Below are positions 1,838 through 22,802 of a stretch of 64,000 nucleotides of DNA, in pieces. The stretch comes from Minisyncoccia bacterium. Its GTDB lineage: Bacteria > Patescibacteriota > Minisyncoccia > Phycocordibacterales > DATDWN01. The notes below the pieces were generated by a model. That model ran no database searches. It had not been told where the DNA came from and saw only the letters and a program-made list of their open reading frames with translations. The translations under genes were made by a program, and so were the position numbers. The DNA lies in NCBI GenBank assembly GCA_049297675.1, contig JBAQUS010000010.1, positions 6,781 through 70,780 on the forward strand, given 5' to 3'. Numbering within the stretch: position 1 is the stretch's first letter; each line of letters starts with the position of its first letter.

Positions 1838-3661
1838 ATGGATAACGATATAACATATTTTGCAGAAACTGATGCTAGAAATAAAAAAGTTAAATTTGGA
1901 ATAAAGGCCAAGGATAGATTAAAACATCTCTATGTTATTGGGAAAACAGGAATGGGAAAGTCTACCCTTCTTGAGAATATGGCCATTCAGGATATTCAAA
2001 GCGGAAACGGCTTGGCCGTTATTGATCCTCACGGAAGTATGGCCGAGAAGCTTTTGGATTATGTGCCAGAAAATAGAATAGACGATGTTTTGTATTTTGC
2101 TCCTTTTGATCTAGATTACCCAATTTCCTTTAACATTATGGAGGATGTTGGAGCTGACAAAAGGCACTTGGTAGTGGCGGGACTGATGGCCACATTTGAG
2201 AAGATTTGGGCCGATGCTTGGTCGGCAAGAATGGCATATATATTACAGAACACACTTTTAGCCCTCCTTGAATTTCCGGGAGCGACTCTTCTCGGTGTAA
2301 ACAGGATGTATACCGACAAGAATTTTCGAAATCAGGTAGTTGATAATATAAAGGATGTTGCTGTGCGCTCTTTTTGGGTTGATGAGTTTACAAAATATAC
2401 AGATAGATATACTCAGGAAGCGACGCCTGCAATACAGAACAAAATTGGTCAATTTGCTAGTAATCCTCTCATTAGAAACATTATCGGTCAGAGTAAATCA
2501 AGTTTTAATTTGAGAGACATAATGGATCAAAAAAAGATTCTTATAATGAATCTTTCAAAAGGTCTGGTCGGTGAGGGCAATGCCAAACTACTTGGCTCAA
2601 TGCTTATCACCAAAATTTACCTAGCTGCCATGAGTCGAGCTGACCTCAGTGCCAAAGAGATGATTTCAACTCCTAATTTTTATTTTTATGTTGATGAGTT
2701 TCAATCTTTCGCTAACAAATCATTTGCTGATATTTTATCTGAGGCCAGAAAATACAAACTCAATTTGACGATTGCTCACCAGTACATTGAGCAGATGGAA
2801 GAAGAGGTTCGGGATGCTGTTTTTGGAAACGTTGGAACAATGATTACTTTTAGAGTGGGAGCTTTTGATGCAGAAGTGTTAGAGAAAGAATTTTTCCCTA
2901 CATTTACTGCATCAGATTTGGTCAATCTTGGTTTTGCTCAAGTTTACTTGAAACTGATGATAGACGGAGTGTCATCTCAACCTTTTTCGGCTAGAACAAT
3001 TGCTCCAATACCTAAACCGGTAATTAGCTATAAAAATGCAGTAATAAAAAGTTCCAGAGATCAGTTCGGTCGTTCGAGAATAGATGTGGAGAAAGAAATA
3101 AATGAGTGGCATGGATCAAGTCCAGCAAGCACAAAAGAAGAGAAGCCTCAACAAAGAAGAGAATGGGATAGACCAAAGGAGTATCCAAAACCAAGTGATG
3201 GTGGAAGACCTAATCCACAGTTAGCTCAAGTTCTAACACAATTTACAAAACCTATTGAGCACAAAGAGAGCTTTCAAAAGCCAACAGAGGAGTTTAGAAA
3301 AAGAGAGACTTCTCCAAAACCAATTGCACCAGTGCATAACAATCCTAATCCAAACCAGACGGTTTCACTTTCAAATTTAAGTAGTATAAAAGACAATAAA
3401 AAACCGACAATGGAAGGCATATCCAGTTTAAAAGAAGCACTTTCTAAAGTAATAAATAAACCCAGAATTGAGCCCGAGACAAAACCAATAGTAAAACTTG
3501 AGGCAAAACCACTAGAGAGAAAAATTACCACAGAGAACAATAAAGATAATAGTAAAGATATGAAAGATCAGCAGAGAGAGAATGTTAAAAAAGAAACGCC
3601 TCCAAAAGAGGTCCCAGAAGAAGTTCTTAGGAAAATATTAAGCATGGATGGAAACAAATAG
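1838..3661 (+). CDS. FtsK/HerA-superfamily P-loop NTPase (TraD/VirD4 coupling-protein-like or DUF87/DUF853-like) with a ~200-aa Lys/Glu/Pro-rich low-complexity C-terminal tail
   Basis: Walker A (VIGKTGMGKST) is followed by VIDPHG, and a Walker B-like FYVDEFQSF is followed by IAHQ. There is no N-terminal TM segment. The C-terminus (about aa 400-607) is K/E/P-rich and predicted disordered. Confidence 0.5.
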   Translation: MDNDITYFAETDARNKKVKFGIKAKDRLKHLYVIGKTGMGKSTLLENMAIQDIQSGNGLAVIDPHGSMAEKLLDYVPENRIDDVLYFAPFDLDYPISFNIMEDVGADKRHLVVAGLMATFEKIWADAWSARMAYILQNTLLALLEFPGATLLGVNRMYTDKNFRNQVVDNIKDVAVRSFWVDEFTKYTDRYTQEATPAIQNKIGQFASNPLIRNIIGQSKSSFNLRDIMDQKKILIMNLSKGLVGEGNAKLLGSMLITKIYLAAMSRADLSAKEMISTPNFYFYVDEFQSFANKSFADILSEARKYKLNLTIAHQYIEQMEEEVRDAVFGNVGTMITFRVGAFDAEVLEKEFFPTFTASDLVNLGFAQVYLKLMIDGVSSQPFSARTIAPIPKPVISYKNAVIKSSRDQFGRSRIDVEKEINEWHGSSPASTKEEKPQQRREWDRPKEYPKPSDGGRPNPQLAQVLTQFTKPIEHKESFQKPTEEFRKRETSPKPIAPVHNNPNPNQTVSLSNLSSIKDNKKPTMEGISSLKEALSKVINKPRIEPETKPIVKLEAKPLERKITTENNKDNSKDMKDQQRENVKKETPPKEVPEEVLRKILSMDGNK

Positions 3662-4991: not shown

Positions 4992-5999
4992 ATGAGAATT
5001 CTAATTACAACAGGTATATATCCACCAAAGGTAGGTGGTCCATCACAGTATGCCAAAAACTTATTTGAAGTCTGGCAAAAGGCGGGTCATGAAGTTTTAG
5101 TTCGAACTTACACTATTGAGAATAGTATACCTACTGGAATAAGACACATTTGGTTTTTTTTGAAAATTATTCCTGCAGTGTTAAAATCGGATTTTGTCCT
5201 AAGCCTTGATACTTATAGTGTTGGGTTTCCCTCTGTCTTTGCCTCAAAAATTTTTGGGAAAAAAGTAATGATTCGTACAGGAGGAGATTTTCTCTGGGAG
5301 AGCTATGTAGAAAGAACAAGAGAAAGAGTATTGTTTAGAAATTTCTACGAAGATAAAGCTGTCAAACTGAATCTTAAAGAAAAAGTTATTTTTTCTATCA
5401 CCAAGTGGACTTTGAAAAATGCTAATAAACTCATTTTTTCGACAAATTGGCAGAGGGACATTTTCGTTAAAGCTTACCAGTTGGATATAGAAAAAACATC
5501 TATTATAGAAAATTATTATGGCCAGAAAGAATCCAGTTTGGGTCCAAATTCTAAAGATTTTATAGCTTCGACTAGAAATTTGTATTGGAAAAATCTCGAT
5601 GTATTGAAAAAGATCTTCGTGAGAATTGTTCGCAAGAACTCGCAGGTAAAGCTTTACACTTTGAATACCGATTATGATTCATTTATGGAAAGGATGAGGG
5701 GTAGTTTTGCTGTTGTTCTTGTCTCACTTGGGGACATAAGTCCAAACATGATTCTCGATGCCATAAGACTAAATAAGCCTTTTATTTGCACAAAAGAAGT
5801 TGGGATTTTTGATAGAATAAAAGATGCCGGTATTTTTGTGGATCCACTGAATGAAAATGAAATTGAGGAGGCTGTTTTAAAACTACTCAATCCTGAGGAA
5901 TATTCAAAAGCTAAAGAGAAGGTCAAAAATTTTAATTTTACACATACATGGGAAGAGATTTGTAATGAATTCATAACAATTTATAATTCAATAGAATAA
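4992..5999 (+). CDS. Glycosyltransferase (GT-B, GT4-like N-terminal domain)
   Basis: The N-terminus MRILITTGIYPPKVGGPSQYAKNL is the typical GT4 N-terminal motif. The C-terminal half is only weakly GT1-like. Confidence 0.55.
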   Translation: MRILITTGIYPPKVGGPSQYAKNLFEVWQKAGHEVLVRTYTIENSIPTGIRHIWFFLKIIPAVLKSDFVLSLDTYSVGFPSVFASKIFGKKVMIRTGGDFLWESYVERTRERVLFRNFYEDKAVKLNLKEKVIFSITKWTLKNANKLIFSTNWQRDIFVKAYQLDIEKTSIIENYYGQKESSLGPNSKDFIASTRNLYWKNLDVLKKIFVRIVRKNSQVKLYTLNTDYDSFMERMRGSFAVVLVSLGDISPNMILDAIRLNKPFICTKEVGIFDRIKDAGIFVDPLNENEIEEAVLKLLNPEEYSKAKEKVKNFNFTHTWEEICNEFITIYNSIE

Positions 6000-6003
6000 A
6001 GGG

Positions 6004-7155
6004 ATGAAAGTCTTATCAATCGGAATGGATAGAAAGTTGTTTGAAGAGGGAAGTTCTGTTTTGGAGCGTTCAAAAGAATATGCCGAAAAAATGGAGGAGC
6101 TCCACATAGTTGTCTTTTCATTACAAAGACACAACCTTTTATACAAAAAATACCAAAATTTGCATATTTATCCGACAAATTCATATTCCAGGATCACTTT
6201 TTTGTTCGGGGCATACTTCCTCGGAAAGAAAATAATAGAGGAGAATAATTTTTTGACGAGTAGATCAATTATAACAGTCCAAGATCCTATGACCATAGTC
6301 GGATATTGCCTATCAAAGAAATTCAAACTTCCCATTCAGCTTCAGATTCACACTGATATATTCAACTCTAATTTTAAAAAATCTCTGATTGGATTTGGAA
6401 ATTTCTGGTATTCTGGGCTCGTTCAGGTTCCACTGACTACTTATTTTCTACCTAGAGTTTCTGGAATAAGAGTGGTTAGCCAATCGATCAAAGATTCTAT
6501 TTTGACTAAGTTTAGTTTTTTAGATAGAAAAATAGAAGTTTTACCAATATATGTCGATATAAATCATCTAATAAGTAGTTATCCAGGAAGGGATATAAAA
6601 AAGGATTTTCCTGGGTTCAACAGTATCATTCTTATGGCCTCTAGATTATCAAAAGAGAAAAGAATCGATATTGCTTTAAATTCCTTTAAGAAAGTATTGT
6701 CAAAGTTTCCACTGGCCGGATTGGTTATTTGTGGGGAGGGTCTTGAAAGAGAAAATCTCATAGTCAAAGCTAAGGAGTTAGATATTTCAAAAAGTGTCGT
6801 TTTTTTGCCTTGGCAGAGCGATCTCATGTCATACTATAAAACTTGCGATGTTTTTCTTCTTACTTCTGAGTATGAGGGGTACGGAATGACGCTTATAGAA
6901 GCTGGGGCATCGGGCTGTCCTGTAGTTACAACAAAGGTAGGTGTGGCTAACTCAAATCTTTTTGAGGATGGAAGAAATTCTTACGTTTGCGAAATCAACG
7001 ATACCGATTGTCTCTCTGAAAAAATTACCATATTATTAGATAACAATACCAAGAGAGACGATTTCAAGAGGAATTTGCAGAAAAACATAAAAAATTATTC
7101 AAAGACAAAAGAAGAGTATGTTGATCAATATGTTTCCTTACTTGAAAAACTTTAA
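6004..7155 (+). CDS. Glycosyltransferase family 1 (GT4-type)
   Basis: Carries the GT1 C-terminal signature SEYEGYGMTLIEAGASGCPVVTTKVG. Confidence 0.75.
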   Translation: MKVLSIGMDRKLFEEGSSVLERSKEYAEKMEELHIVVFSLQRHNLLYKKYQNLHIYPTNSYSRITFLFGAYFLGKKIIEENNFLTSRSIITVQDPMTIVGYCLSKKFKLPIQLQIHTDIFNSNFKKSLIGFGNFWYSGLVQVPLTTYFLPRVSGIRVVSQSIKDSILTKFSFLDRKIEVLPIYVDINHLISSYPGRDIKKDFPGFNSIILMASRLSKEKRIDIALNSFKKVLSKFPLAGLVICGEGLERENLIVKAKELDISKSVVFLPWQSDLMSYYKTCDVFLLTSEYEGYGMTLIEAGASGCPVVTTKVGVANSNLFEDGRNSYVCEINDTDCLSEKITILLDNNTKRDDFKRNLQKNIKNYSKTKEEYVDQYVSLLEKL

Positions 7156-7164
7156 AAAATTTCG

Positions 7165-7590
7165 ATGCATAAAAAAATATTTACTCTAGTTTTGGATGTT
7201 TTGGAGGAACACAAAATACTTAGATACATTATCTCTGGCGGTATGAGTGCTACGGTAAACATTTCTCTTTTCTCTCTATTTTTTTATATCTTTGATATTT
7301 ATTACATAATCTCAAACATTATGGCTTTTTCGGTAGCTTTTTTTGTCAGTTTGTTTTTACAAAAATTTTGGACATTTAGAGATCATTCAACAGAAAATAT
7401 GCACATTCAAGGGATGTATTATCTTCTCAACTCTCTTTTAGGTTTGGCAATAAACACCACAGTCCTTTATGTTTGTGTTGATTATTTGAAATTTATACCG
7501 ATTGTAGGAGTAATCATAGCTGGAATATGTACTGCTCTAGTAACATTTCAGATTTCTAGTAGATATGTGTTTAATAATAGCTTTAAATGA
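7165..7590 (+). CDS. GtrA-family small membrane protein (putative polyprenol-phosphate-sugar flippase)
   Basis: A 141-aa protein with four predicted TM segments. The N-terminal LRYIISGGMSATVNISLFSLF matches the GtrA-family pattern. Confidence 0.6.
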   Translation: MHKKIFTLVLDVLEEHKILRYIISGGMSATVNISLFSLFFYIFDIYYIISNIMAFSVAFFVSLFLQKFWTFRDHSTENMHIQGMYYLLNSLLGLAINTTVLYVCVDYLKFIPIVGVIIAGICTALVTFQISSRYVFNNSFK

Positions 7591-7622
7591 TTCCATAATT
7601 TTGACAGAAATGAGTGTGTATA

Positions 7623-7641
7623 ATGGTACCTGACACCATTT
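7623..7641 (+). repeat. REP-like palindromic sequence (AATGGTACCTGACACCAtt), copy 1
   Basis: One of four copies of the 17-18-bp motif AATGGTACCTGACACCA. It contains the TGGT...ACCA stem and a KpnI-type GGTACC core. It sits at the left edge of the RAYT-containing cassette. Confidence 0.6.
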
Positions 7642-7682
7642 CTCCCTTGGTGTTCCAGTTGATAAATTGCTAAAATAATAAT

Positions 7683-8699
7683 ATGAAAAATCTTGGACAG
7701 TTAACTCCTGCACATGAAAGTGTAGAGAAAAAAGAAAATGGTGTAGAAATTTCTGCTACGAAAGAATCGGCAGTCGTTTCATTTCGTAATCTTGAATTAA
7801 ATGAACAAAACCCCAGATCGCCAGAGATTAAAATTGTTGTTGAAAAACAACCTGTTGAATTAGTTGAGGGGAAAAGCTATGTCAATTCTGCGGTTTTAAT
7901 TGATAAAGAAACGGAAAGAATGCAGTCACTTGCAACTCAGGCGGAAGCACTTTTAGAAATACCAGAAAATGAGAGGCCAGCAAAAGTTTTAGAGATTTTG
8001 AGAAGCAAAATGCACTACGCATACAATGATGTTCTTGATAAACTTTCTGAAAGTGATCCTGATTTAGCAAAATGGGTTGCAGAAAATACTGGTCTTAGTT
8101 CTCCATTTTCCCATGATGTTCCTTTATCGGATCTTGTGGAGAAAGGCTATGGTGTATGTAGGCATTTGTCCGTTGCATATTTATGGTTGGCACAAAAGGC
8201 AGGATTGAAAGGCGTTTTGTTGAGTAGTGAGTATGGTTCAATAAAAAATATTGAAAGAACTGATACAAAACAAAAATTATTTAGATCGGCAGATATTGGT
8301 AAACCAGTTTCTGCTCATTCTTGGGTAGAAATAAAAACAAGTGACGGACAGTGGATTCCAGTTGATCCATCCACGAAACTTGTTGGTGATTCAGAAGAAG
8401 GGCTAGCCATGTTTAAAGAAGCAAATTATTTGGCTATTGGATATGGGATAGACATTGACGCGGAACCAGGAGATAAGTTGGGGGTTGATAGAACAGCAAT
8501 ATTTTTTGCTCCTGCAGAGCCAACATCTTCTGGAACGTTTTGTTTAGAACTTCGTAGTTCAAAACCCACTATCAGATTCGGAAAAGAAAATTTACCGCCT
8601 ACTAATGTCCCGTATTCAGGAGAAGGAAAATTGAAAATAGAAAAAGACGATAATTATGGAGGTTTTGCACTTGATATTTTGGAAGTTAAGGTAGAATAA
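7683..8699 (+). CDS. Transglutaminase-like cysteine-protease-superfamily protein
   Basis: Shows a Cys-His-Asp triad pattern: GYGVCRHLSVAYLW (Cys), SAHSWVEIKTSDGQWIPVDPS (His and Asp). Confidence 0.6.
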   Translation: MKNLGQLTPAHESVEKKENGVEISATKESAVVSFRNLELNEQNPRSPEIKIVVEKQPVELVEGKSYVNSAVLIDKETERMQSLATQAEALLEIPENERPAKVLEILRSKMHYAYNDVLDKLSESDPDLAKWVAENTGLSSPFSHDVPLSDLVEKGYGVCRHLSVAYLWLAQKAGLKGVLLSSEYGSIKNIERTDTKQKLFRSADIGKPVSAHSWVEIKTSDGQWIPVDPSTKLVGDSEEGLAMFKEANYLAIGYGIDIDAEPGDKLGVDRTAIFFAPAEPTSSGTFCLELRSSKPTIRFGKENLPPTNVPYSGEGKLKIEKDDNYGGFALDILEVKVE

Positions 8700-8740
8700 A
8701 AATTATTTTATCAATCCACAGTCTCCATGAAATTGGGAAA

Positions 8741-8758
8741 TTGGTGTCAGGTACCATT
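8741..8758 (-). repeat. REP-like palindromic sequence, copy 2 (inverted orientation)
   Basis: ttggtgtcaggtaccatt is the reverse complement of aatggtacctgacaccaa. It lies immediately upstream of the RAYT gene and is inverted relative to copy 3. Confidence 0.6.
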
Positions 8759-8786
8759 TTTTGTAATTACATGCTAGAGTCACTAA

Positions 8787-9449
8787 ATGTCACGAGTACC
8801 TAGAGTAGATATAGGAGATGAGATTTACCATGTTCTCAACAGAAGTAATGGTCGTGTAAAAATATTCAATAATGACAAAGACTACAAAAACTTTGTAGAT
8901 TTACTGATCGAGACAAAAGAGAAGTTTGATATGAGGATTCTTGCTTACTGTATAATGCCGAATCATTGGCATCTAGTTCTGTATCCAAAGAAAGACGGAG
9001 ATCTTTCAAAATTCATGCAATGGTTATCATTAACTCATACACAAAGATATCATGTTAAAACCGAGACTGTTGGATTTGGTCACCTGTACCAAGGAAGGTA
9101 TAAATCATTTTTAGTATCAAGAGACAACTATCTTCTCCAGGTTATTAGATATGTCGAACAAAATCCACTAAGGGCAAAAATTGTTAAAAGAGCTGAGGAT
9201 TGGAAGTGGGGAAGTGGGTTTAATAGATTTAATCCTTCAGAAAAAAACTTTGTTTCTGAATGTCCGATTGATCTACCAAACGATTATAGACAATGGTTAA
9301 ATGAGGTTCACGAAAAAGATGAATTAGAGAACATTAGACTGTCAGTAGAAAAGAGTAAACCATTTGGTACAATTAGTTGGGTAGATAAAATGGTCGAAAC
9401 TTTTAAATTGGGTTTAACCACAAGACTAAGAGGAAGACCCACGAAATAA
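8787..9449 (+). CDS. REP-associated tyrosine transposase (RAYT; IS200/IS605 TnpA-like HUH Y1 transposase)
   Basis: Has the HUH motif MPNHWHLVLYP and the C-terminal catalytic Tyr helix LLQVIRYVEQNPLRAKIV. It is about 220 aa, typical of the Y1_Tnp family. It is flanked by inverted REP copies at 8741-8758 and 9449-9467. Confidence 0.8.
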   Translation: MSRVPRVDIGDEIYHVLNRSNGRVKIFNNDKDYKNFVDLLIETKEKFDMRILAYCIMPNHWHLVLYPKKDGDLSKFMQWLSLTHTQRYHVKTETVGFGHLYQGRYKSFLVSRDNYLLQVIRYVEQNPLRAKIVKRAEDWKWGSGFNRFNPSEKNFVSECPIDLPNDYRQWLNEVHEKDELENIRLSVEKSKPFGTISWVDKMVETFKLGLTTRLRGRPTK

Positions 9450-9467
9450 TGGTACCTGACACCATTT
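9449..9467 (+). repeat. REP-like palindromic sequence, copy 3
   Basis: aatggtacctgacaccatt overlaps the RAYT stop codon. It is followed by the tandem tacattcatt tacattta. Confidence 0.6.
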
Positions 9468-9502
9468 ACATTCATTTACATTTATCTTGAGGTAAAAAAA
9501 AT

Positions 9503-10723
9503 ATGAAAAAAAATATTCCAAAATTGAACAAAATAATAGGACAATCAAATATAAGTGATCACATTACAACATTCGAGAAGAAATTAGAGGAATTTCTTAA
9601 GAAACACAATAAACCAATCCAATTATCTGTTAATGATATTAAAGATATGGTCTGGAATGATAGGGACAACAAAACTTTAATGAGGCTGGTTTTTTTAATT
9701 GCTGAAAGAAATAATATTAAAGATATAAATATGGTCATGTCCATTCTATCCGAAGCATGGAATAATTTTCCGAGGATAGATATGAACGGATTATCACCCC
9801 AAGAAATGACTCTACGATTAAAAATTGATCCAGATTTTGACTATAAAGATAGACCAGACTTTACACAAATTTTCATTGATGATTTTCCAGAAAAAGATTC
9901 TATAGAAAAAATTAACGAGCATGATTGGCAATGGAGTTTTTCCGGGACAACAAGATTAGATATGGACAAACTAGAATTTATTGATAGTCCAAATAATTTC
10001 AATGATGAAAGTGGTGAATTAGTTGACGAAATATTTAGTCCGCTAAAAATCGAAATGGCAAAGGAACTTTTGTCTGTTAACCCGTTACTTTTCAAGGCAT
10101 CTATCATACTTGCTAATCACGAATTTCAATCTGGATTTTCAAACAGGGCAAAACAAATTCTCCTTGAAACCATAACAAACGCAAAAAAAATGATTCCAAG
10201 CGAATTTGAAATTGGAAAGGATTTGATTCAATGGGGATTTTTGGATAACAGATCATATATCCTACTTTTGGGAGAGCATGCAACTTTAATTGAAGCTGTA
10301 GATGGTATGAAAGCAGCAATACCTCTATATGAAGAGATAGTCTCAATAAATCCAAATGACAATACCGGTATCAGGTCATTTTTAGCAACGGCATATATAG
10401 CAACAAACCAACTTGATAAGCTGTTTATTCTTGATAATAAATATCCGGATGATATGGTTACAGAATTATCAATGGGGACTGTACTTGCTTGGATAAAAGT
10501 TGGAAATTTTGATTTAGCAAAAAAGCGTATCCAAAAGAATAAGAAAATTTGGAAAAATTTATATAGTGAGATTTTAAGTCATGAACACATAAAACCAGAC
10601 TTACTTAGGGATAGGATTTTGATGGGCGGAGAAGATGAAGCATGGTTATACTGGATAAACCAAGGTAATTTTTGGATGACAACAAAGGGAGCAAGAGAAT
10701 TTCTTCAAGAATGCATAAAGTAA
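9503..10723 (+). CDS. Hypothetical protein (406 aa), no recognisable domain
   Basis: A long ORF with plausible codon usage and a GAGGT Shine-Dalgarno 10 nt upstream. No motif recognised. Confidence 0.5.
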   Translation: MKKNIPKLNKIIGQSNISDHITTFEKKLEEFLKKHNKPIQLSVNDIKDMVWNDRDNKTLMRLVFLIAERNNIKDINMVMSILSEAWNNFPRIDMNGLSPQEMTLRLKIDPDFDYKDRPDFTQIFIDDFPEKDSIEKINEHDWQWSFSGTTRLDMDKLEFIDSPNNFNDESGELVDEIFSPLKIEMAKELLSVNPLLFKASIILANHEFQSGFSNRAKQILLETITNAKKMIPSEFEIGKDLIQWGFLDNRSYILLLGEHATLIEAVDGMKAAIPLYEEIVSINPNDNTGIRSFLATAYIATNQLDKLFILDNKYPDDMVTELSMGTVLAWIKVGNFDLAKKRIQKNKKIWKNLYSEILSHEHIKPDLLRDRILMGGEDEAWLYWINQGNFWMTTKGAREFLQECIK

Positions 10724-10748
10724 GAATGATTACTTTTGTACAAAAAAT

Positions 10749-10766
10749 AATGGTACCTGACACCAA
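10749..10766 (+). repeat. REP-like palindromic sequence, copy 4
   Basis: aatggtacctgacaccaa, preceded by the same ataatggtacc context as copy 3. It marks the right boundary of the cassette. Confidence 0.6.
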
Positions 10767-10772
10767 ATAGTA

Positions 10773-11813
10773 ATGAAACTTCTAATCTTTACACAAAAAG
10801 TTGATACAGATGATGTGGTGCTAGGGTTTTTTCACGAGTGGATTTTGGAATTTTCAAAAAAATGTCAGTCAATCAAGGTAATTTGTTTGTATAAGAGTGA
10901 ATTTGACTTACCTGAAAACGTGGAAGTTTTTTCTTTGGGAAAGGAAGATGGTACTTCAAAGATTGGTCAGGGAATAAACTTGTTCAAATATTTATTTCGA
11001 TTGAACGGCTCTTACGACAAAGTTTTTGTTCACATGGATCCCATTTATCTGGTTTTGTGCGGTTGGTATCTATGGATAAAAGATGTACCTGTTTATATGT
11101 GGTATGTGCATAGAAGTGTAGACTTGAAACTAAGGATTGCAACTTTTTTTTCTAGAAAAATTTTCACATCCTCTCCAGAAAGTTTTGGTATAAAGACACC
11201 TAAAGTGGTTTACATGGGTCACGGTATTAACACAGACGAACTGATATATATTGAAAGAGATTTTTCAAAAAAACCCTTGTCTCTGGTTCATCTCGGAAGA
11301 GTTACTCCGATCAAAAATTTAGACACATTGATTTTGACAGGAGCTAATTTGAAAGAAAAAGGGGTAAACGTTTCCGTATCATTTCATGGAGATTGTGTAA
11401 CCGAGACTGACAAAGATTACAAAGCATCTCTTGAGTCTCTTGCTGACACAAAAGGGCTTAAAAACGAGATTATTTGGGCTGGCAAATATAGGCATGATAA
11501 TTTGGCGGAAGTGCTAAAAAATGCTCAAATAAGCCTAAATTTAGCCCCTACAGGGGGTATGGATAAGGCAGTTTTGGAGTCTATACTCATGGGGATTCCT
11601 GTCTTTGTCTCTAATAATGCATTCAACGATCTGTTCGGAGATAATAAGAATCTGTTTGTCTTTAATAACAAAGACCATCTCGATCTCTCTCAAAAAATAG
11701 TCAGATTTTTGGAGCTTGAAAACAAGAAAGAAATAATGAAAAATCTAGACAAAAAAGTCAGAGAAAATTTCAGTTTAACTCGTTTGATAGACAGAATGAT
11801 TGAGACAATGTAA
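10773..11813 (+). CDS. Glycosyltransferase family 1 (GT-B)
   Basis: The N-terminus MKLLIFTQKVDTDDVVLGFFHEW is typical of many GT4 proteins. The C-terminal GGMDKAVLESILMGIPVFVSN matches the GT1 E-x7-E region. Confidence 0.6.
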   Translation: MKLLIFTQKVDTDDVVLGFFHEWILEFSKKCQSIKVICLYKSEFDLPENVEVFSLGKEDGTSKIGQGINLFKYLFRLNGSYDKVFVHMDPIYLVLCGWYLWIKDVPVYMWYVHRSVDLKLRIATFFSRKIFTSSPESFGIKTPKVVYMGHGINTDELIYIERDFSKKPLSLVHLGRVTPIKNLDTLILTGANLKEKGVNVSVSFHGDCVTETDKDYKASLESLADTKGLKNEIIWAGKYRHDNLAEVLKNAQISLNLAPTGGMDKAVLESILMGIPVFVSNNAFNDLFGDNKNLFVFNNKDHLDLSQKIVRFLELENKKEIMKNLDKKVRENFSLTRLIDRMIETM

Positions 11814-11879
11814 TCTATCTAAATATTTTGACTCTTGACTTTTAAACTTATTTGTCTACAATGGAGCTATATCAATACG

Positions 11880-11926
11880 AAAAGGGGTCCGAAAAGTGCA
11901 GGTGCTTAAGGCACCCTTTTCTTTTG
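11880..11926. terminator. Bidirectional rho-independent terminator between convergent genes
   Basis: aaaaggggtcc...ggtgcttaaggcaccctttt cttttg forms a stem (aaaaggg/ccctttt outer, ggtgc/gcacc inner). It is followed by a T-run on the + strand and preceded by an A-run (a T-run on the - strand). Confidence 0.5.
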
Positions 11927-12385
11927 CAAAAATTCTATTTTAGATTTTATGTCTTCTCTTTCTAGAAAATCAAAATAAAAGTTACTCAAATATTTAAATA
12001 ATGATGATGAAAATTTTCGATTTGGGAAAAGTATTTTTTTGAATTTATTTTTCTTTATCAAATAGTCAACTATCTTTATGTAGTCACCATCTCCAGATAC
12101 AAGTATTATTTTATCAAAATTCTTATTATCGATAAGGTTCTTCATAATTTCAAAAACTATATCAGTGTCAACATTTCCTTTCTTTGTTCCCATTAATGTT
12201 GAATCATGTTTTTTGAATGAAATAATAAATCCAGCTTTTTGAATATTATTATATAAATCTTGCTCAGTTTCTGAAACATAACCCAAGAAGTAATACGCCT
12301 CAGTAACCGAATATTTATCTCTCAGGTATGTTCTAAACTTAAAAAGATCTACCCTCCATTCATTTTGGATAGTTCCAAGATGCAA
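11906..12385 (-). CDS. NYN-domain (LabA/YacP-like) putative ribonuclease
   Basis: ILVSGDGDYIKIVDYLIKKNKFKKILFP is the characteristic NYN/DUF88 core. The called start is TTG. The conserved N-terminal motif (N-I-A-F-I-D-G-Q-N) is encoded in-frame immediately upstream (12386-12415), before any canonical start codon. Confidence 0.6.
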   Translation of the reverse strand: MHLGTIQNEWRVDLFKFRTYLRDKYSVTEAYYFLGYVSETEQDLYNNIQKAGFIISFKKHDSTLMGTKKGNVDTDIVFEIMKNLIDNKNFDKIILVSGDGDYIKIVDYLIKKNKFKKILFPNRKFSSSLFKYLSNFYFDFLEREDIKSKIEFLQKKRVP

Positions 12386-12466
12386 GTTTTGACCATCAAT
12401 AAACGCTATGTTGGATTACCTATCTTTTTTCATGCCGAAACTATAGGATAATCTAAACTTCAAAGC

Positions 12467-12475
12467 GTGTATAAT
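12467..12475 (+). promoter_or_regulatory. Candidate extended -10 element (TGTATAAT) immediately upstream of the GT gene
   Basis: The sequence reads gtgtataat at 12467-12475, and the annotated ATG (12478) or the second ATG (12484) follows within 10 nt. This suggests a possible leaderless transcript. Confidence 0.25.
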
Positions 12476-12477
12476 AT

Positions 12478-13670: not shown

Positions 13671-14650
13671 TGAAATACAAAATAACAGTTATTACCCCAA
13701 AGAATAAAAACGATTATTTGACCGATACAGTTATTGACGGTCTTCTGGCTCTGAGAGAGGAGAATTACGATCTAGAGTTTTACATGCCGGATTCTTATCC
13801 AACAGACTTGGAAGTTTTGAGTTTTCGGAAAAGCGAGGGGGATTTTTTTAACTACGCTATTGAAGCGGACATAATTTTATTTGCTTGGGGAAAAGACAAT
13901 ACGAACTATGAACTTGCAGAAAAAATAAATAGATACGAGAGAACTATTTTTATAGATGGATCTGAAATAGGCAGAAATGGAAGATATGATGAGAAAATAC
14001 AAAAATCAATAATTGAAGGAACATATGAGGGTAGGAGCAAAATTGATTTAGAGATGGAGAAAAAATGTACCCAATACTTAAGAAGAGAAAAACCATACTT
14101 AAGAAACATCATTCCTTTTCCTTTTGGAATAGAAAGAAAATATACTAAGCATTACTCAGAAAATACGAAAAAAGATATAGATTTTTTCTGTGTATTTGGA
14201 CAGGACGAATATCCTATAATGCGTAGGGAAGTCAGAGGGACACTAATAGAGTTTTGCAAGAAAAATAATTTTAAATGTTTTACTGAAAAGACTGATAAGG
14301 ATAATTTTTATAGAATGCTCTCTCGATCACGGGTTGGGATTTCTGTCGGTGGGGGTGGTTTTGATACGGCACGCTTCTGGGAGATATTGGGGAACAATTG
14401 CATTCTTTTGACTGAAACGATTGATATCTACGAGCCAAATTCCAATAGACTTAAATATGAGAGAATCAGGCAGTTTAAGGATTTGTCAGAATTTAAGCTT
14501 AAACTTGAGAAGCTTGGGGAGTACTTAAAATCAGAATATGACCAAGATTCACTAAGCTCAGAATATCAAAAAATTATAGTAGATCACTCATCCAAATCAA
14601 GAGTTTTAGAGATAATAAAGAAAGCCAAAGAAAAGGGTATAATTGATTAA
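13670..14650 (+). CDS. CgeB-like glycosyltransferase (Glyco_trans_1_2 / DUF3880-type)
   Basis: The C-terminal RFWEILGNNCILLTE matches the CgeB/Glyco_trans_1_2 motif (R.FE.la.g.lllt). The N-terminal region is not otherwise recognisable. Confidence 0.4.
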   Translation: MKYKITVITPKNKNDYLTDTVIDGLLALREENYDLEFYMPDSYPTDLEVLSFRKSEGDFFNYAIEADIILFAWGKDNTNYELAEKINRYERTIFIDGSEIGRNGRYDEKIQKSIIEGTYEGRSKIDLEMEKKCTQYLRREKPYLRNIIPFPFGIERKYTKHYSENTKKDIDFFCVFGQDEYPIMRREVRGTLIEFCKKNNFKCFTEKTDKDNFYRMLSRSRVGISVGGGGFDTARFWEILGNNCILLTETIDIYEPNSNRLKYERIRQFKDLSEFKLKLEKLGEYLKSEYDQDSLSSEYQKIIVDHSSKSRVLEIIKKAKEKGIID

Positions 14651-14653
14651 GCT

Positions 14654-15556
14654 ATGGATAAAAAATGTTACATCTGCCAGAGTACAACATCTTTTTTTAT
14701 AAGTCAGCAAGGTTTTACTTTTAATAAATGCAAAAACTGCAGTTTGTTTTTTGTAGATCCAATGCCAACTGATCAGGAGTTATCACGAGTTTATTCTCCC
14801 ACAACAAACTACCAGTCCAATAAGATAAGAAAGGATTACAAAAAAGAGAAAAATCTAAAATTTATAAAGATTTTCGATAAGTTGAGAAAGTATGAACTGC
14901 CAAATCAGAAGGTTCTAGATGTCGGAGCTTCAGATGGGGAGTTTTTATATTATGCTAAAAATAATGGATTTGAACCCTTTGGAGTTGAACCAAACAAGAC
15001 CACAGCAGACTTGGCAAATAAAAATAACCTCAATGTTTTTAACGGCTTTTTATCAGATTGTAACTTTTCAAAAAACTCCTTTGGTTTATTAAGACTGGGA
15101 GACGTTTTAGAGCACTCAAATAATCCGCAAAAGCTTATTAATGAGTGTCAGTCCTTCCTGGTTTCAGGGGGGTTACTTGTTGTTTCAATACCAAACATGG
15201 ACTCAAATTGGGTTAGGAGTACTTATTTATTAAAAAAAATATTCAGCATACCCTGGTCAATTTTAGAGCCACCCCACCATTTGTTGTATTTTAGAGAAAA
15301 TAATTTGGATTTATTTATGGACAAGGAAGGTTTTAAGAAAATTACATCATGGTATGATAGACCACCAACCCTAAAATACGAGTTAGGCAACACTCACCTT
15401 TTCGGCAAATTTAATAAACAAAAAAATCTGACAAATTTTCTTCAGTTTTTTTTCGGTTTCTCACTATACACCATTCTCTATTCATTGGATTACATCATTA
15501 CACCTTTAAAGAAAAAAGATTATAGTATGGTTTGTATATACAAAAAAAATGCTTAA
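14654..15556 (+). CDS. Class I SAM-dependent methyltransferase with N-terminal Zn-ribbon (CxxC...CxxC)
   Basis: The Zn ribbon is CYICQ...CKNC. The SAM-binding motif I is VLDVGASDGEFLYYAKNNGFEPFGVE. Confidence 0.75.
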   Translation: MDKKCYICQSTTSFFISQQGFTFNKCKNCSLFFVDPMPTDQELSRVYSPTTNYQSNKIRKDYKKEKNLKFIKIFDKLRKYELPNQKVLDVGASDGEFLYYAKNNGFEPFGVEPNKTTADLANKNNLNVFNGFLSDCNFSKNSFGLLRLGDVLEHSNNPQKLINECQSFLVSGGLLVVSIPNMDSNWVRSTYLLKKIFSIPWSILEPPHHLLYFRENNLDLFMDKEGFKKITSWYDRPPTLKYELGNTHLFGKFNKQKNLTNFLQFFFGFSLYTILYSLDYIITPLKKKDYSMVCIYKKNA

Positions 15557-16592
15557 TATTTATATCCACAAAAAACTTGATAAATTGTCACACATCCCAC
15601 TACTGGACTATTATTTTGGTAGGAGCAATTTAGGAGTAGAAAGATATGGTGATCAAGCCATTGGTCTTTTAAATAAGCAGTTTTTTAATTTAGTAATGTC
15701 TCCAGAAGAAGCGGATTATTTTTTAATACCTCATAATTTCTTTTATATAAAAGACCAAAAGTATCTTGATGATTTTGTTGGTTTATCCAAAAAATACAAC
15801 AAAAAAATTATTATTTTTTCCTATGGCGATTCAGATAATGATATAAATATTCCAAACAGCATCATCTTTCGAAGTTCGCAATATGCTTATAAAGCCAGGA
15901 GAAACGAAATAATAATGCCAGCTATAGCTGATGATTTATCTATAGGATTAGATTTGAGACCTAGACAAAAATCTGAGAAACCAGTTGTTGGATTTTGTGG
16001 TTGGGCAGACTATCCGAATTTTTACAGAGCTATAATCGAAAATATTAAATCAACCGTAGTTAGTTTTAAAAGTGTGTTCATTGGGAACTATTATTACCAA
16101 AAAAGAGGGCTCATGTTTCGAATAGAGGCGATAAAACATCTAAGAAAATCAAATTTATTGCAAGCGAACTTTATTATTCGTGATACATTTTCAGGTAACG
16201 AAAAAACAAGAAAAATAGACCCAAAAGTGGCAAGAGAAGAATATATTAAAAATATCTTAGAATCTGACATGTCCTTGGCTGTTAAGGGAGATGGCAATTT
16301 CTCTATAAGATTTTATGAAATTTTGAGCTTAGGAAGAATCCCTATTCTGGTTGATACAAGTTGTCCTTTGCCACTAAAAGATATTGTTAAATATAGCGAT
16401 TTTTCTGTAAGAGTTGATTCAAAAAATCTCAGCAATCTATCTGAAACAATATTAAAATTTTATACAAATTTGTCTGAAGATCAGTTCATAATGATGCAAA
16501 AAAATGCTAAGATAACCTTTGACTCGTATTTGAGAATCGATCAATTTTTCTCATACACTTTCACAGCTGAATTTCTAAAAAAATTTGACTAG
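15549..16592 (+). CDS. Putative glycosyltransferase (exostosin-like / CgeB-like GT-B C-terminal domain)
   Basis: DYFLIPHNFFY and the C-terminal IRFYEILSLGRIPILVDTS resemble the exostosin/Glyco_trans_1_2 motif. Confidence 0.4.
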   Translation: MLNIYIHKKLDKLSHIPLLDYYFGRSNLGVERYGDQAIGLLNKQFFNLVMSPEEADYFLIPHNFFYIKDQKYLDDFVGLSKKYNKKIIIFSYGDSDNDINIPNSIIFRSSQYAYKARRNEIIMPAIADDLSIGLDLRPRQKSEKPVVGFCGWADYPNFYRAIIENIKSTVVSFKSVFIGNYYYQKRGLMFRIEAIKHLRKSNLLQANFIIRDTFSGNEKTRKIDPKVAREEYIKNILESDMSLAVKGDGNFSIRFYEILSLGRIPILVDTSCPLPLKDIVKYSDFSVRVDSKNLSNLSETILKFYTNLSEDQFIMMQKNAKITFDSYLRIDQFFSYTFTAEFLKKFD

Positions 16593-18015
16593 CTCTATGG
16601 TAAAACCGCTCAAAATTGCTCCAGTTGTTTTTCTCTTATTAGTCACTACTTTTTTCTCTATTTACAAACTTTCTGAAAGTCCAAGAACATGGATGGATGA
16701 GGGTATTATCACACAGGTTTCAAAAAATGTTGCTGAATATGGAAAGCATGCTTTGCAGGTGGCACCAGAGAGATTTGTTTCGGCAGGTATAGTCTCAACA
16801 GGTTTTCCTGTCACTTTTCCTATAGCGTTATCTTTCAAATTCTTTGGCACTGGTTTGCTTCAGGCTAGAATAGTTATGGTTATTTTTATACTGCTACTTA
16901 TTTCTACAGTATTTTTTTATTTAAAGAGACTTTATGGAATGAAAGTTGGATTTTGGGGAACTTTACTTGTGGCCACTTTTTCTCCACTTTATGGTAATGG
17001 TAAAAATGTATTAGGTGAAGTTCCAGGTCTCTTTTTCTTTTTTGCAATGCTTTTGTTTATTGACAAAGCTATTCATGACAAAGAGAAAATTAGTAATTAT
17101 ATTCTTGCTGGTTTGTTTACAGGCTTAGCATTTTCAACTAAATCAATTTTCATTCTACTATTACCAGCACTATTGGTAGCTAGTTTATGGCATTTTTATA
17201 GAGGAGGTATTAATTTTGACAAGTATTACTTGTATTCATTTATAAGTTTTATAGCTGTCTTTTTTCTGTGGATATACATTCAGTTCAGTAATGATTCAAT
17301 ATCTAAGATATTGCTTATTTATGCTAATCCTTATTACATATCTGTAATTGATTCAATAAAAAATAATTTACTGTTGTTTATAGGTAGACCTGAACCAATT
17401 TATTTTCTAGGGACATTACTAATTTGGATAGTTTCATATTTCTATCGTATCAAAAAGGCAGTACCAATTAATTTTTCAGAGTCCCTTGCTCTCATGTTCT
17501 CAATACTGATCTTTCTGGCATTTTTTAGAACTCCTGGTTATTTTAGATATTTCTTTCTAGCACAGTTTATAAGTCTTGTGTATTTACTACCCTCATTGAA
17601 CTCTTTATTTTCACATACCAAACTATCAAAATTTATTTTATGGGGTATAGGAATCCTTATTGTTTTTCATATTTATATGACATCATTCCATTCTTGGGTG
17701 GCAAGTCATTACAGAGGTACTAGATCCCATGATATATCGATTTTGGCGAATGAAATATCGGATGATGGCAAAATATTGTTTTACCAAGTTCCAGAATTTA
17801 TTATTTTTCTAAAAAACAACAATTATCATCAGTTTATAGATATTACAGCTCTCATAAAAGTTGGAGAAGAAAATAAAGCATTAGTTGAGAATGGTTATTT
17901 TGATAAAATAGTCATTAATGATTCAGTCTATGATAAAAATGACTCAATGTTTAAATATTATGGTAGAGTTGGGGGTCTTGACCACTATATAATTCTGAAA
18001 AAAAATAAATTATGA
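16585..18015 (+). CDS. GT-C fold membrane glycosyltransferase (ArnT/PMT-like)
   Basis: About 11 predicted TM helices. The first extracytoplasmic loop reads ESPRTWMDEGIITQVSKNV (acidic DE motif), as in the ArnT/PMT family. Confidence 0.5.
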   Translation: MTSSMVKPLKIAPVVFLLLVTTFFSIYKLSESPRTWMDEGIITQVSKNVAEYGKHALQVAPERFVSAGIVSTGFPVTFPIALSFKFFGTGLLQARIVMVIFILLLISTVFFYLKRLYGMKVGFWGTLLVATFSPLYGNGKNVLGEVPGLFFFFAMLLFIDKAIHDKEKISNYILAGLFTGLAFSTKSIFILLLPALLVASLWHFYRGGINFDKYYLYSFISFIAVFFLWIYIQFSNDSISKILLIYANPYYISVIDSIKNNLLLFIGRPEPIYFLGTLLIWIVSYFYRIKKAVPINFSESLALMFSILIFLAFFRTPGYFRYFFLAQFISLVYLLPSLNSLFSHTKLSKFILWGIGILIVFHIYMTSFHSWVASHYRGTRSHDISILANEISDDGKILFYQVPEFIIFLKNNNYHQFIDITALIKVGEENKALVENGYFDKIVINDSVYDKNDSMFKYYGRVGGLDHYIILKKNKL

Positions 18016-20824: not shown

Positions 20825-22684
20825 ATGTGTGGTATAGCAGGTTTCGTTGGTCAAGGTGATGTATCAGACCTAGAAAAGATGACAGCATCCCTATCTAACA
20901 GAGGTCCTGATGATAGCGGTTTGTTTTGTGAAGACGGGGTTGGTTTGGGACACACAAGGCTAAGTATTATAGATCTAAGTCCTACTGGGCATCAACCAAT
21001 GTTTTCCAGTGATAAAAAAGTTGGCATCGTTTTTAATGGTGAGATGTATAATTACTTAGAATTGAAGGAAGAATTACGAAGTCAGAATTACAATTTTAAA
21101 TCTACTTCGGATACTGAAGTCATAATTGCTTTGTACATAAAGTATGGTGAGAAGTGTTTCGAAAAGATGAATGGTATGTTTGCCTTAGCTATTTATGATT
21201 TTGAGAAAGGGAAATTGATTCTCGCTCGAGACAGGCTAGGCAAAAAGCCTCTCTATTGGGCAATATTTGATAACACTTTAATTTTCGGTTCGGAACTCAA
21301 GTCTCTTCTTAAACACCCTTCATTTGTTAAAGAGATGGATCCAGAATCCCTGGAGTTATATCTTCAGCTGGATTATGTTCCCACACCGAAAACAATTTAC
21401 AAAAATGTTTTTAAGCTCGAACCAGCAAGTTTTCTTAAATTTCAAAACGGACAATATGAAGTAAAAAAGTTTTGGGAGTTGGGGGCAAAAGAAGAAGAAA
21501 AAATCTCACTAAGTGATGCCATGAAAAAACTTCATAGAGAGTTACAAGTTGCTGTAAAATCAAGAATGATCTCTGATGTTCCACTCGGTGTCTTTCTAAG
21601 CGGTGGCCTGGATAGTTCTACTGTAGCTTATTATGCTAAGAATGCTTATAAAAACGATATTCACACATTCTCAATTGGATTTAAGGAAAAAAGTTTTGAT
21701 GAGTCAAAATACGCTATTAAAGTGGCAAAATATCTTGGTACTACTCACCATCACAAAATTGTCTCGGCCAGGGACTGTTTTGAGACACTGGACGAAATAG
21801 TTGAAATTTTTGATGAACCAGTAGCCGATGCCTCTGTCATCCCAACATATCTTTTATCAAAATTTGCCAAAGAAAGCGTAACTGTAGCTATAGGTGGAGA
21901 CGGTGGGGATGAGTTGTTTGCAGGTTATCCAACTTTTCAAGCAGATAAATACCACAAAACTTATTTAAATCTACCTTCTGTGGTTAAGAAGCTAATTTCC
22001 GTAGTAATAAGTTTAATTCCGGCAACAGACAATAATTTTGGGTTGAAATTTAAACTCCAAAAATTTATTGAGGGTATTGATAAAGATAGGTTTATGAGTC
22101 ATCAAAACTGGTTAGGGACATTTTCCAGGTCTGACTTAGAAAGTTTGCTTAGGTCAAAGACTGGGAAAAATTTGGTAAAAGATTACTTGGGAAATGTATT
22201 AAGTGAGACAAAAATAAAAGATGAGGATAATAAATTACTTTACTCATACATGAGAACTTACATGATGGATGAAGTTTTGGTAAAGGTTGATAGAGCTAGT
22301 ATGTTTGCATCTCTTGAAACCAGATCACCCTTTCTCGATTATAGATTGGTAGAATTTGTATTTAGTCTACCATACTCCTTTAAACTGTATGGTTTTAAGA
22401 CAAAATTTATTCTAAAAATGCTTATGTCAACAAAATTGCCAAGATCGATTGTTTGGAGAAAAAAGAAAGGATTTGGAATACCGCTTACAAAGTGGCTAAA
22501 AGGGGACCTAAAAGAGTTTTGTCTCAGTTTGCTTTCCAAAGAAAATATTTTAAAGCAAGGTATATTTGATTATGAATTTATAGAAAAAACCTTAAATGAA
22601 CACTTTTCAAACAAACAAGACAATCGTAAAAAAATATGGAATTTGATGGTTTTTCAGATGTGGTATAGGAGGTATATGAAATAG
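20825..22684 (+). CDS. asnB: Asparagine synthetase, glutamine-hydrolysing (class II amidotransferase)
   Basis: The N-terminal MCGIAGFVG places the catalytic Cys at position 2. The PP-loop SGGLDSS marks the synthetase domain. Confidence 0.9.
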   Translation: MCGIAGFVGQGDVSDLEKMTASLSNRGPDDSGLFCEDGVGLGHTRLSIIDLSPTGHQPMFSSDKKVGIVFNGEMYNYLELKEELRSQNYNFKSTSDTEVIIALYIKYGEKCFEKMNGMFALAIYDFEKGKLILARDRLGKKPLYWAIFDNTLIFGSELKSLLKHPSFVKEMDPESLELYLQLDYVPTPKTIYKNVFKLEPASFLKFQNGQYEVKKFWELGAKEEEKISLSDAMKKLHRELQVAVKSRMISDVPLGVFLSGGLDSSTVAYYAKNAYKNDIHTFSIGFKEKSFDESKYAIKVAKYLGTTHHHKIVSARDCFETLDEIVEIFDEPVADASVIPTYLLSKFAKESVTVAIGGDGGDELFAGYPTFQADKYHKTYLNLPSVVKKLISVVISLIPATDNNFGLKFKLQKFIEGIDKDRFMSHQNWLGTFSRSDLESLLRSKTGKNLVKDYLGNVLSETKIKDEDNKLLYSYMRTYMMDEVLVKVDRASMFASLETRSPFLDYRLVEFVFSLPYSFKLYGFKTKFILKMLMSTKLPRSIVWRKKKGFGIPLTKWLKGDLKEFCLSLLSKENILKQGIFDYEFIEKTLNEHFSNKQDNRKKIWNLMVFQMWYRRYMK

Positions 22685-22802
22685 TTTTATTGTTTATCCA
22701 CAACTAACCATAATAAATCAATTTACACAATTTTAGTGATAATATATAATTGAAAGTAGAAAATATCACCTTTCCGTTATATATTATAAATAATACAATT
22801 TT

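Follow-up and report, generated by a model that had tools for sequence, protein, structure and literature searches.

Di Nocera et al. (2013) gave the names TIRtrons and TIRYTs to genes that resemble those of repetitive extragenic palindromic (REP)-associated tyrosine transposases (RAYTs) and are flanked by GGGGWSAS terminal inverted repeats (TIRs); these TIRs overlap the 3′ end of the gene in some cases and also occur as moderately abundant solo, dimeric and clustered copies (PMC3733652). Quentin et al. (2018) equated the TIRYTs with subclass 2.1 of the TnpA_Y1 proteins and matched this subclass to Group 1 of the RAYTs of Bertels et al. (2017) (PMC6006769; PMC5581495). Its members have a median length of 238 amino acids (aa), a class-2 Y---NP motif and a C-terminal helix–turn–helix (HTH; Bac_DnaA_C, HTH_23 or HTH_28), and no REP-like structures were seen around the genes; REPtrons, for their part, were described as not transposing as a unit (PMC6006769). 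The TIRYT/subclass 2.1 family of Y1 transposases is very large, its function and mobility have never been shown, and its main survey reported no hairpins near the genes. Here we describe a locus in a 64-kb stretch of DNA from a Minisyncoccia bacterium (contig JBAQUS010000010.1; the whole stretch is called the window below), in which a gene for a Y1 transposase of the HUH (histidine–hydrophobic–histidine) type lies between inverted repeats inside a glycan operon. We consider it likely that the locus is a TIRtron, that is, an insertion sequence (IS)-like element with a TIRYT-type Y1 HUH transposase and inverted, hairpin-capable repeats of 17–24 nucleotides (nt), which carries a passenger gene by way of a second right end.

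The exact 17-mer AATGGTACCTGACACCA occurs four times in the window, at 7622–7638 (+), 8742–8758 (−), 9448–9464 (+) and 10749–10765 (+). An earlier note, made from the sequence alone, had already counted four copies, with three of the four coordinates one base off. The chance expectation is 0.09 copies, and none of 100 shuffled sequences held four or more. The window is all the sequence available from this organism and bounds all within-genome motif counts; no fifth copy was found in it, even at up to three mismatches, and a search with a generalised pattern returned just the same four. The transposase gene sits, as had been noted, exactly between an inverted pair: copy 2 ends 28 nt before its ATG and copy 3 lies on its stop codon, the arms of the pair (8739–8762 and 9444–9467) being 24 nt long and 92% complementary. 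The features of the locus are listed in Table 1.

Table 1 Positions in the window of the insertion, its repeats and genes, and the adjoining operon genes
Feature	Position	Strand	Description
GtrA-like gene	7165–7590		Upstream neighbour of the insertion
Whole insertion	7591–10772		3.18 kb, from the gtrA stop codon to the GT4 start codon
TIR copy 1	7622–7640	+	Solo; right-end-type hairpin AATGGT-ACCTGAC-ACCATT
Degenerate inverted partner of copy 1	7648–7658	−	TGGTGTTCCAG in place of the expected TGGTGTCAG; read from the sequence
Transglutaminase-core (cysteine-protease-like) gene	7683–8699	+	PF01841, 33 bits, E 8e-8
Putative travelling module	8730–10765	+	Left TIR, transposase, right TIR 1, passenger gene, right TIR 2
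TIR copy 2, candidate left end of the element	8730–8762	−	High-identity tract common with locus L162 begins here
Extended −10 promoter element	8772–8780	+	TGCTAGAGT; ends 6 nt before the transposase ATG
Y1_Tnp protein gene, TIRYT/RAYT-like HUH transposase	8787–9449	+	220 aa; PF01797, E 5e-18
TIR copy 3, candidate first right end	9448–9482	+	Over the stop codon, then tandem 10-nt CATTTACATT x2 (9463–9482)
Passenger gene, 406-aa protein	9503–10723	+	Sub-threshold TPR_19, 23.5 bits against a cut-off of 25
TIR copy 4, candidate second right end	10749–10765	+	Stem truncated; high-identity tract common with L162 ends here
GT4 glycosyltransferase gene (GT2 of the operon)	10773–11813		Downstream neighbour of the insertion

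The operon was compared with the four loci that hold the closest orthologues of its downstream glycosyltransferase (GT) gene, GT2: L160, L161 and two independent assemblies, L162 and L163. The GT2 protein of the window is 81% identical to that of L160, 66% to that of L161 and 65% to those of L162 and L163. In L160 and L161, gtrA runs directly up to the GT gene or into it (gap of 0–7 nt), and neither orthologous operon contains the repeat motif. The comparison therefore identifies 7591–10772 of the window as an insertion, with natural empty sites in L160 and L161, and upholds the earlier view of a 3.2-kb block set between gtrA and the GT gene. Its GC content is the same as that of the surroundings. 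In L162 and L163 the same junction is filled, by a 503-aa gene, an M23 peptidase gene and a 223-aa gene on the opposite strand, followed by TIR(−)–transposase–TIR(+)–406-aa gene–TIR(+). The gene order of the window recurs in GCA_049298995.1 and two Logan assemblies, so that both arrangements are present in independent assemblies.

Against L162 and L163, most 100-nt bins of the module between copies 2 and 4 are 96–100% identical. Protein identity between the window and L162 amounts to 97.7% for the transposase and 95.8% for the 406-aa product, whereas the flanking proteins reach only 61% (GT1), 70% (GtrA), 65% (GT2) and 67% (GT3). The high-identity tract begins among the reiterations that adjoin copy 2 on its outer side and stops at copy 4, so that both its limits fall within a few nt of the repeats. 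With the module near-identical and the flanks at 61–70%, the travelling unit would therefore be 8730–10765, without the transglutaminase-like gene, and these identities indicate that the TIR-bounded module has had an evolutionary history separate from that of its flanks. By the same comparison, the second right end, 1.3 kb downstream of the first, puts the 406-aa gene inside the mobile unit. The transglutaminase-like gene and copy 1 are missing from L162, where the 503-aa, M23 peptidase and 223-aa genes stand instead and copy 1 has no counterpart at the equivalent position; this gene and its repeat would then be a separate piece of the island, outside the travelling module. The three-gene cassette bounded by four copies that the earlier note had proposed is thus reduced to the two genes, for the transposase and the 406-aa protein, between copies 2 and 4. 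We also considered a recombination tract reaching into GT2 and rejected it, the rise in identity over the first 400 nt being equal against the insert-free L161.

The two further genes of the block proved to be as first described, a transglutaminase-core gene and one for a 406-aa protein with no domain above threshold (Table 1). The 406-aa family is rare, with 11 relatives found, and in the four relative contexts examined there was no transposase gene and no motif; the neighbours were PIF1-helicase genes (two loci) and genes for an SMC-like ATPase, DUF4325 and HicA. The idea that the 406-aa gene is a regular partner of the transposase was rejected, a homologue occurring at none of the 159 loci outside the window population and L162/L163.

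The transposase, whose database title is 'MAG: transposase [Minisyncoccia bacterium]' (MAG, metagenome-assembled genome), carries the HUH motif reported earlier, as NHWHLV at residues 59–64, together with the catalytic Y122, a YVEQNP motif and a C-terminal RGRP tail. In an alignment of 20 homologues at 55–70% identity, H60 and H62 (NHWH), Y122 and N126–P127 (YVE[QR]NP) are invariant in all 20, as is the C-terminal T.R..GRP(K) tail; to judge by this alignment, the catalytic residues are intact. The motif YVEQNP, YVERNP in the family consensus, bears the class-2 Y---NP signature. The protein scores 74.5 bits with the NCBIfam model REP_Tyr_transpos and 17 bits, against a cut-off of 55, with the IS200 model NF033573. 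Its sole sequence relative in the PDB is the Escherichia coli TnpA_REP structure 4ER8, in which the tyrosine aligned with Y122 is, we take it, the catalytic Y115. An AlphaFold2 model (pLDDT 81.5) also has 4ER8 as its best structural match (E 8e-8), the ISDra2 and IS608 transposases coming next (E 1e-5 to 1e-3). Taken together with the match to PF01797 (Table 1), these scores place the protein, in line with the earlier note, with the RAYT/TnpA_REP group and not with the IS200 TnpA proteins. Subclass 2.1 of TnpA_Y1 is probably the subclass to which the window clade belongs, with two features, the HTH and the key motifs, that differ.

Relatives of the transposase number at least 3,686, many of them in Patescibacteria, and RAYT-like genes outside Proteobacteria were on record already (PMC5581495, PMC6006769), so that such a gene outside Proteobacteria, part of what the earlier note found noteworthy, is not new in itself. 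Homologue clusters at 50% identity number 493 at E <= 1e-30 and 12,746 at E <= 1e-10; identity to the closest protein relative falls to 71% once the L162 population is set aside. Many relatives have their final codons, N-G-T-stop, supplied by the repeat itself (AAT GGT ACC TGA). A search of viral contigs and phage records gave one partial and one weak homologue of the transposase, and therefore no evidence for a phage vehicle.

Upstream of the gene, the pattern TGnTAnnnT ends 6–7 nt before the ATG at 41 of 77 homologue loci and appears in 2 of 77 control windows. A conserved −10 element beside the ATG therefore suggests that the element has its own promoter next to the 5′ TIR. The transposase mRNA is probably leaderless, and the 5′ repeat beside the promoter may let the transposase autoregulate. 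A scan of the block for consensus promoters and terminators gave nothing above shuffled controls.

The link between repeat and gene was tested without bias towards the repeat in 80 metagenomic loci picked on the transposase homologue protein alone (L079–L158). A matched motif can be recognised on one side of the gene, or on both, in at least 45 of the 80, and matches to the window motif within three mismatches were found in 37 of the 75 5′ flanks that could be scored and in 35 of the 78 such 3′ flanks. The layout is that of the window: the 5′ copy is inverted and precedes the ATG by 16–40 nt; the 3′ copy, in direct orientation, covers the stop codon or lies just past it. Most other loci have variant motifs (for example AATGGTGGCTGACCCCA, AAAGGTTCCTGACACCT and AACGGTTCCTGACACCG) that are identical on both sides of a given gene. 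The commonest variant among relatives, AATGGTGGCTGACCCCATT, has the reverse complement GGGGTCAG, and the core of the window repeat has the reverse complement GGTGTCAG. A DnaA-box reading of the outer flank (TTATCCACA, two loci) was judged coincidental, the flanks differing by lineage. An Rfam scan of 7000–11500 gave two matches, both at chance level, and the repeat is therefore no known RNA motif; a literature search with the motif string returned unrelated primer matches only.

A scan for the 17-mer across genomes, one per species, returned 75 loci, of which about 15–20 are chance matches in conserved coding genes (Bacteroidota, Fibrobacter, Spirochaetes) and were left out as repeats. The exact 17-mer is present in many Patescibacteria lineages and in Firmicutes (Anaerobium, Neobacillus, Heyndrickxia, Lachnospiraceae). 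Related Patescibacteria genomes hold 1–6 exact copies each, and Nomurabacteria genomes have solo copies well away from all transposase genes. Firmicutes genomes carry this 17-mer dispersed as convergent palindromic doublets, AATGGTACCTGACACCATAAAC..GTTTATGGTGTCAGGTACC, that resemble REPINs (REP doublets forming hairpins): Anaerobium acetethylicum has at least 11 17-mer loci (L014, L019, L021, L025, L032, L033, L048, L056, L058, L060, L064), and others lie in Neobacillus (L022, L030, L031, L044, L047) and Heyndrickxia (L068). The repeat-associated protein of Heyndrickxia is only about 30% identical to the window transposase, and the repeat is therefore conserved far more deeply than the protein. 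A Bacillaceae homologue with the motif YIHLNP adjoins a perfect doublet of the identical 17-mer, and plasmid-borne proteobacterial homologues of 23–42% identity (28–32% for the pair of loci examined) have the core CTG[AT]CCCC preserved in the inverted repeats on either side of them. A recognition core CTG[AT]C[AC]CC thus appears to be conserved from Patescibacteria to Firmicutes and Proteobacteria.

At one locus, L171 (P. aeruginosa NZ_CP116719.1), three homologous 'transposase' genes (14239–14931, 16538–17230 and 22170–22862), each flanked by a 32-nt inverted repeat (ATTAGAGTAGGGAAAATAAATCTGTCCCCTTT), are scattered through an apparent orphan toxin/immunity array of the contact-dependent inhibition (CDI) type, with DUF637, deaminase, EndoU and glutamine-deamidase toxin genes. 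Left- and right-end copies also occur 9–70 nt apart with no gene between them, in L036, L071 and L074, at 5866–5945 and 6846–6926 of L137, and at 4283–4369 of L130; these geneless pairs look like miniature derivatives akin to miniature inverted-repeat transposable elements (MITEs).

Related elements were also found as near-identical units in unrelated contexts. L088 and L090 are 99.2% identical over 761 nt, from TIR to TIR, with unrelated flanks, and the pairs L134/L142, L150/L156, L112/L146 and L115/L139 likewise share homology from TIR to TIR, in a range of 90–99% identity; the kilobases on either side of such pairs are unrelated even by tblastx. Among them are 0.7-kb TIR-to-TIR units with no other gene, 94–99% identical. 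Homology in these pairs stops 3–8 nt outside the foot of the hairpin on each side. One of them, L139, has about 1.1 kb more (1412–2521) than L115 (4657–4720) between the GRP codons of the transposase and the 3′ end with its right repeat; we read this extra DNA as inserted or captured within a further member of the family.

The repeat can be drawn as a stem AANGG/CCN′TT with a loop that holds an invariant CTG.C. Over 126 distinct flank motifs, positions 1–6 are paired with positions 14–19 at 80%, and double-change cells number 44, compared with 22.4 +/- 3.1 in shuffles, none of 500 of which reached the observed value; slid-partner controls scored well below the true stem. Positions 3 and 17 show all four Watson–Crick pairs (UA 57, AU 22, GC 6, CG 5), and C9, T10, G11, C13 and C15, in or beside the loop, are invariant. 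This covariation supports a 5-bp stem. As a fold of individual copies, the hairpin that the earlier note proposed to check is weak: each copy alone gives a single-stranded motif hairpin of −1.6 to −3.8 kcal/mol, and z-scores for whole fragments range from +0.06 to −2.0. Copy 4 retains just four stem pairs; at copy 1, the degenerate partner (Table 1) pairs with ACACCA in the predicted fold.

Tandem partial copies, made of the 3′ half of the hairpin and a few following nt, were seen on the outer flank at 92 of 332 motif instances, the unit starting most often at motif positions 8–10, that is, in the loop, around CC/TGAC. Copy 2 of the window has one such reiteration, AAATTGG at 8730–8736, repeated at 8738–8744. 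After copy 3 there are two CATTTACATT units in the window and one in L162, and the 12-nt unit TTTATGACACCA, found at copy 4 in L162, is missing from the window, which is why the stem of copy 4 is truncated there. These end reiterations appear as recent indels between the window and L162; cleavage followed by rejoining, or slippage induced by the hairpin, may have given rise to them.

These observations suggest a mechanism. The transposase would recognise and bind the repeat hairpin on single-stranded DNA, nick it within its loop or at a site a few nt 3′ of its foot, and move any DNA with a left end on one side and a right end on the other. Use of the more distal right end would then capture the neighbouring gene, and the nested partial repeats just outside the hairpins would be left over from cleavage and rejoining. 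More broadly, but only as a tentative and rather doubtful proposal, the TIRYTs could be autonomous Y1-HUH insertion sequences that make up a class of their own, still active, with hairpin ends on opposite strands, passenger capture through distal ends, and nested footprints of cleavage in the loop (C/CTGAC) and 3–8 nt past the stem. If this were true, their mode of transposition would differ both from IS200/IS605 peel-and-paste and from REP/REPIN dissemination.

Several points weigh against reading the locus as a mobile TIRtron. The REP_Tyr_transpos score of 74.5 bits falls just under the NCBIfam RAYT cut-off of 80. Pfam gave no Bac_DnaA_C, HTH_23 or HTH_28 in 20 family members at E up to 5, nor in the C-terminal 75 residues; that scan found Y1_Tnp only, plus a weak AT_hook in three members. 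The AlphaFold2 model has a small helical C-terminal region, with which a remote HTH may be compatible. Single hairpins are thermodynamically marginal, and covariation of a palindromic site is also compatible with a dimer on double-stranded DNA. No target-site duplication or conserved target was seen in the compared element pairs, and symmetrical ends with hairpins on opposite strands misfit the single-strand peel-and-paste geometry of IS200/IS605; the cleavage sites of TIRYTs and the strand that they use are ones that we infer. Moreover, the GT genes here are themselves recombination mosaics, and the junction shared with L162 could be an old insertion refreshed by recombination between repeat copies rather than a product of transposition.

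An alternative that we regard as unlikely is a classical domesticated REPtron, in which a single-copy, vertically inherited RAYT spreads REPs or REPINs and is itself immobile, the four copies being ordinary REPs near it. Such a REPtron would account for a transposase whose profile and fold are closest to TnpA_REP, for its inverted flanks, for the doublets dispersed in Firmicutes and the distant solo copies in Nomurabacteria, and for a nearest relative of only 71% identity outside the L162 population, but none of the four copies has a GTAG or CGTC foot, the stem is only 5–6 bp, and the copy number is low both in the window, with nothing outside the block, and in related Patescibacteria. Whole TIR-to-TIR units, gene included, recur in unrelated contexts, and the contrast between module and flanking genes indicates that the gene itself moves. 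The view of the repeats as classical REPs, taken by the earlier note, does not survive these differences; the copies match GGGGWSAS TIRs instead (PMC3733652, PMC6006769).

We give even less credence, and in fact consider it very unlikely, that the block is a generic genomic islet, produced when recombination, homologous or illegitimate, acted on a hypervariable glycan locus, with an inactive transposase as passenger and the repeats as substrates or scars of recombination. The limits of the shared tract meet the repeat copies within a few nt on both sides, the HUH, tyrosine and NP residues are invariant, the element has its own conserved promoter, and minimal 0.7-kb units recur elsewhere, all of which speak against an islet, although GT2 is a recombination mosaic among four genomes, the island content left of copy 2 differs between the window and L162, a second lineage-specific insertion lies 1 kb away, and the same junction is filled in two genomes with no target duplication. 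Hardly credible, finally, is a canonical IS200/IS605 insertion sequence or a transcription-factor operator set for the glycan operon, the latter raised by the earlier note itself: the Pfam family name 'Transposase IS200 like' and the place of each copy 7–44 nt upstream of a start codon might suggest them, but the NF033573 score is far below its cut-off, the protein has Y---NP instead of Y---Q (PMC6006769), a tnpB gene is lacking, inverted repeats form the ends, and the motif, missing from the orthologous operons of L160 and L161, tracks the transposase gene, over its stop codon, in many unrelated loci, which excludes the operators.

Three further observations concern the surroundings. A gene for an NYN-domain nuclease-like protein (11906–12385, minus strand) lies within 11814–12477, where it separates GT2 from the GT gene that follows; in L160, L161 and L162 these two GT genes adjoin without it, which makes it a second lineage-specific insertion. 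No inverted repeats or motif were found around it. NYN homologues also turn up in L054, close to a solo motif, and in L119, directly after a transposase gene. The GT4 gene at 10773–11813 is a mosaic in which 100-nt segments are 90–98% identical to differing relatives (L160, L161, L162) and others about 50%. Immediately upstream of the glycan operon, at 1838–3661 and upstream, the annotation of L076 places a gene with a weak likeness to TraG/VirD4, the coupling protein of type IV secretion systems (T4SS), and a pilin-like (N_methyl) gene.

The small genomes of Patescibacteria are usually considered poor in mobile elements. A TIRtron at this locus would document a route by which accessory genes enter their surface-glycan operons. 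Together with its relatives, the locus supplies natural empty and filled sites, boundaries defined to a few nt, a covarying hairpin, a passenger-carrying derivative and recent indels at the ends, and such data make the transposon status and the cut position of TIRYTs directly testable.

Compared with the TIRtrons, the locus is alike in having a RAYT-like Y1 HUH gene bracketed by TIRs, with the 3′ repeat over the gene end, and in its fit to GGGGWSAS, at 8 of 8 positions in relatives (GGGGTCAG) and 7 of 8 in the window (GGTGTCAG) (PMC3733652). It differs in that the present clade is found in Patescibacteria and has proteins of 220–228 aa with an invariant RGRPK tail, in that its TIR holds a small covarying hairpin and a passenger gene lies between two right ends, and in the comparative evidence of movement as a unit, of which the 2013 paper has none (PMC3733652). 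With subclass 2.1 it shares the length class, Y---NP, the NH.H form of the HUH motif, a low copy number and a wide, patchy taxonomic spread with plasmid-borne members, as well as the YIHLNP Bacillaceae homologue beside the same 17-mer. The subclass has NHVH or NH[YF]H with YIELNP or Y[IV]HLNP, which are similar but not identical to NHWH with YVE[QR]NP here; the window clade also has no Pfam HTH, and a covarying stem where the subclass had no REP-like structures.

The E. coli REPtron with TnpA_REP (4ER8) offers the closest solved structure and likewise has a gene flanked by inverted hairpin-forming repeats (PMC3333891, PMC3479197), and single-stranded hairpins are the expected substrate of the enzyme in both cases. 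Its REPs differ in their GTAG foot and longer stems and are dispersed in hundreds of copies, and REPtrons are not known to move as units; the element described here, in contrast, has no GTAG, a 5–6-bp stem and a low copy number, and appears mobile as a whole. IS200/IS605 elements such as IS608 and ISDra2 share the HUH and tyrosine chemistry and end a few nt 3′ of a subterminal hairpin, but have asymmetric single-strand ends, a Y---Q motif and often tnpB. The capture of adjacent DNA through a distal end presumably resembles the read-through of IS91/ISCR-type HUH elements, although their enzymes belong to a different HUH family from the TIRYTs. Taken together, these comparisons make a TIRtron with a passenger a system of known kind, whose value lies in comparative evidence of mobility, defined ends and a hairpin, and the locus would be a clear natural example of TIRtron-type elements moving as a unit.

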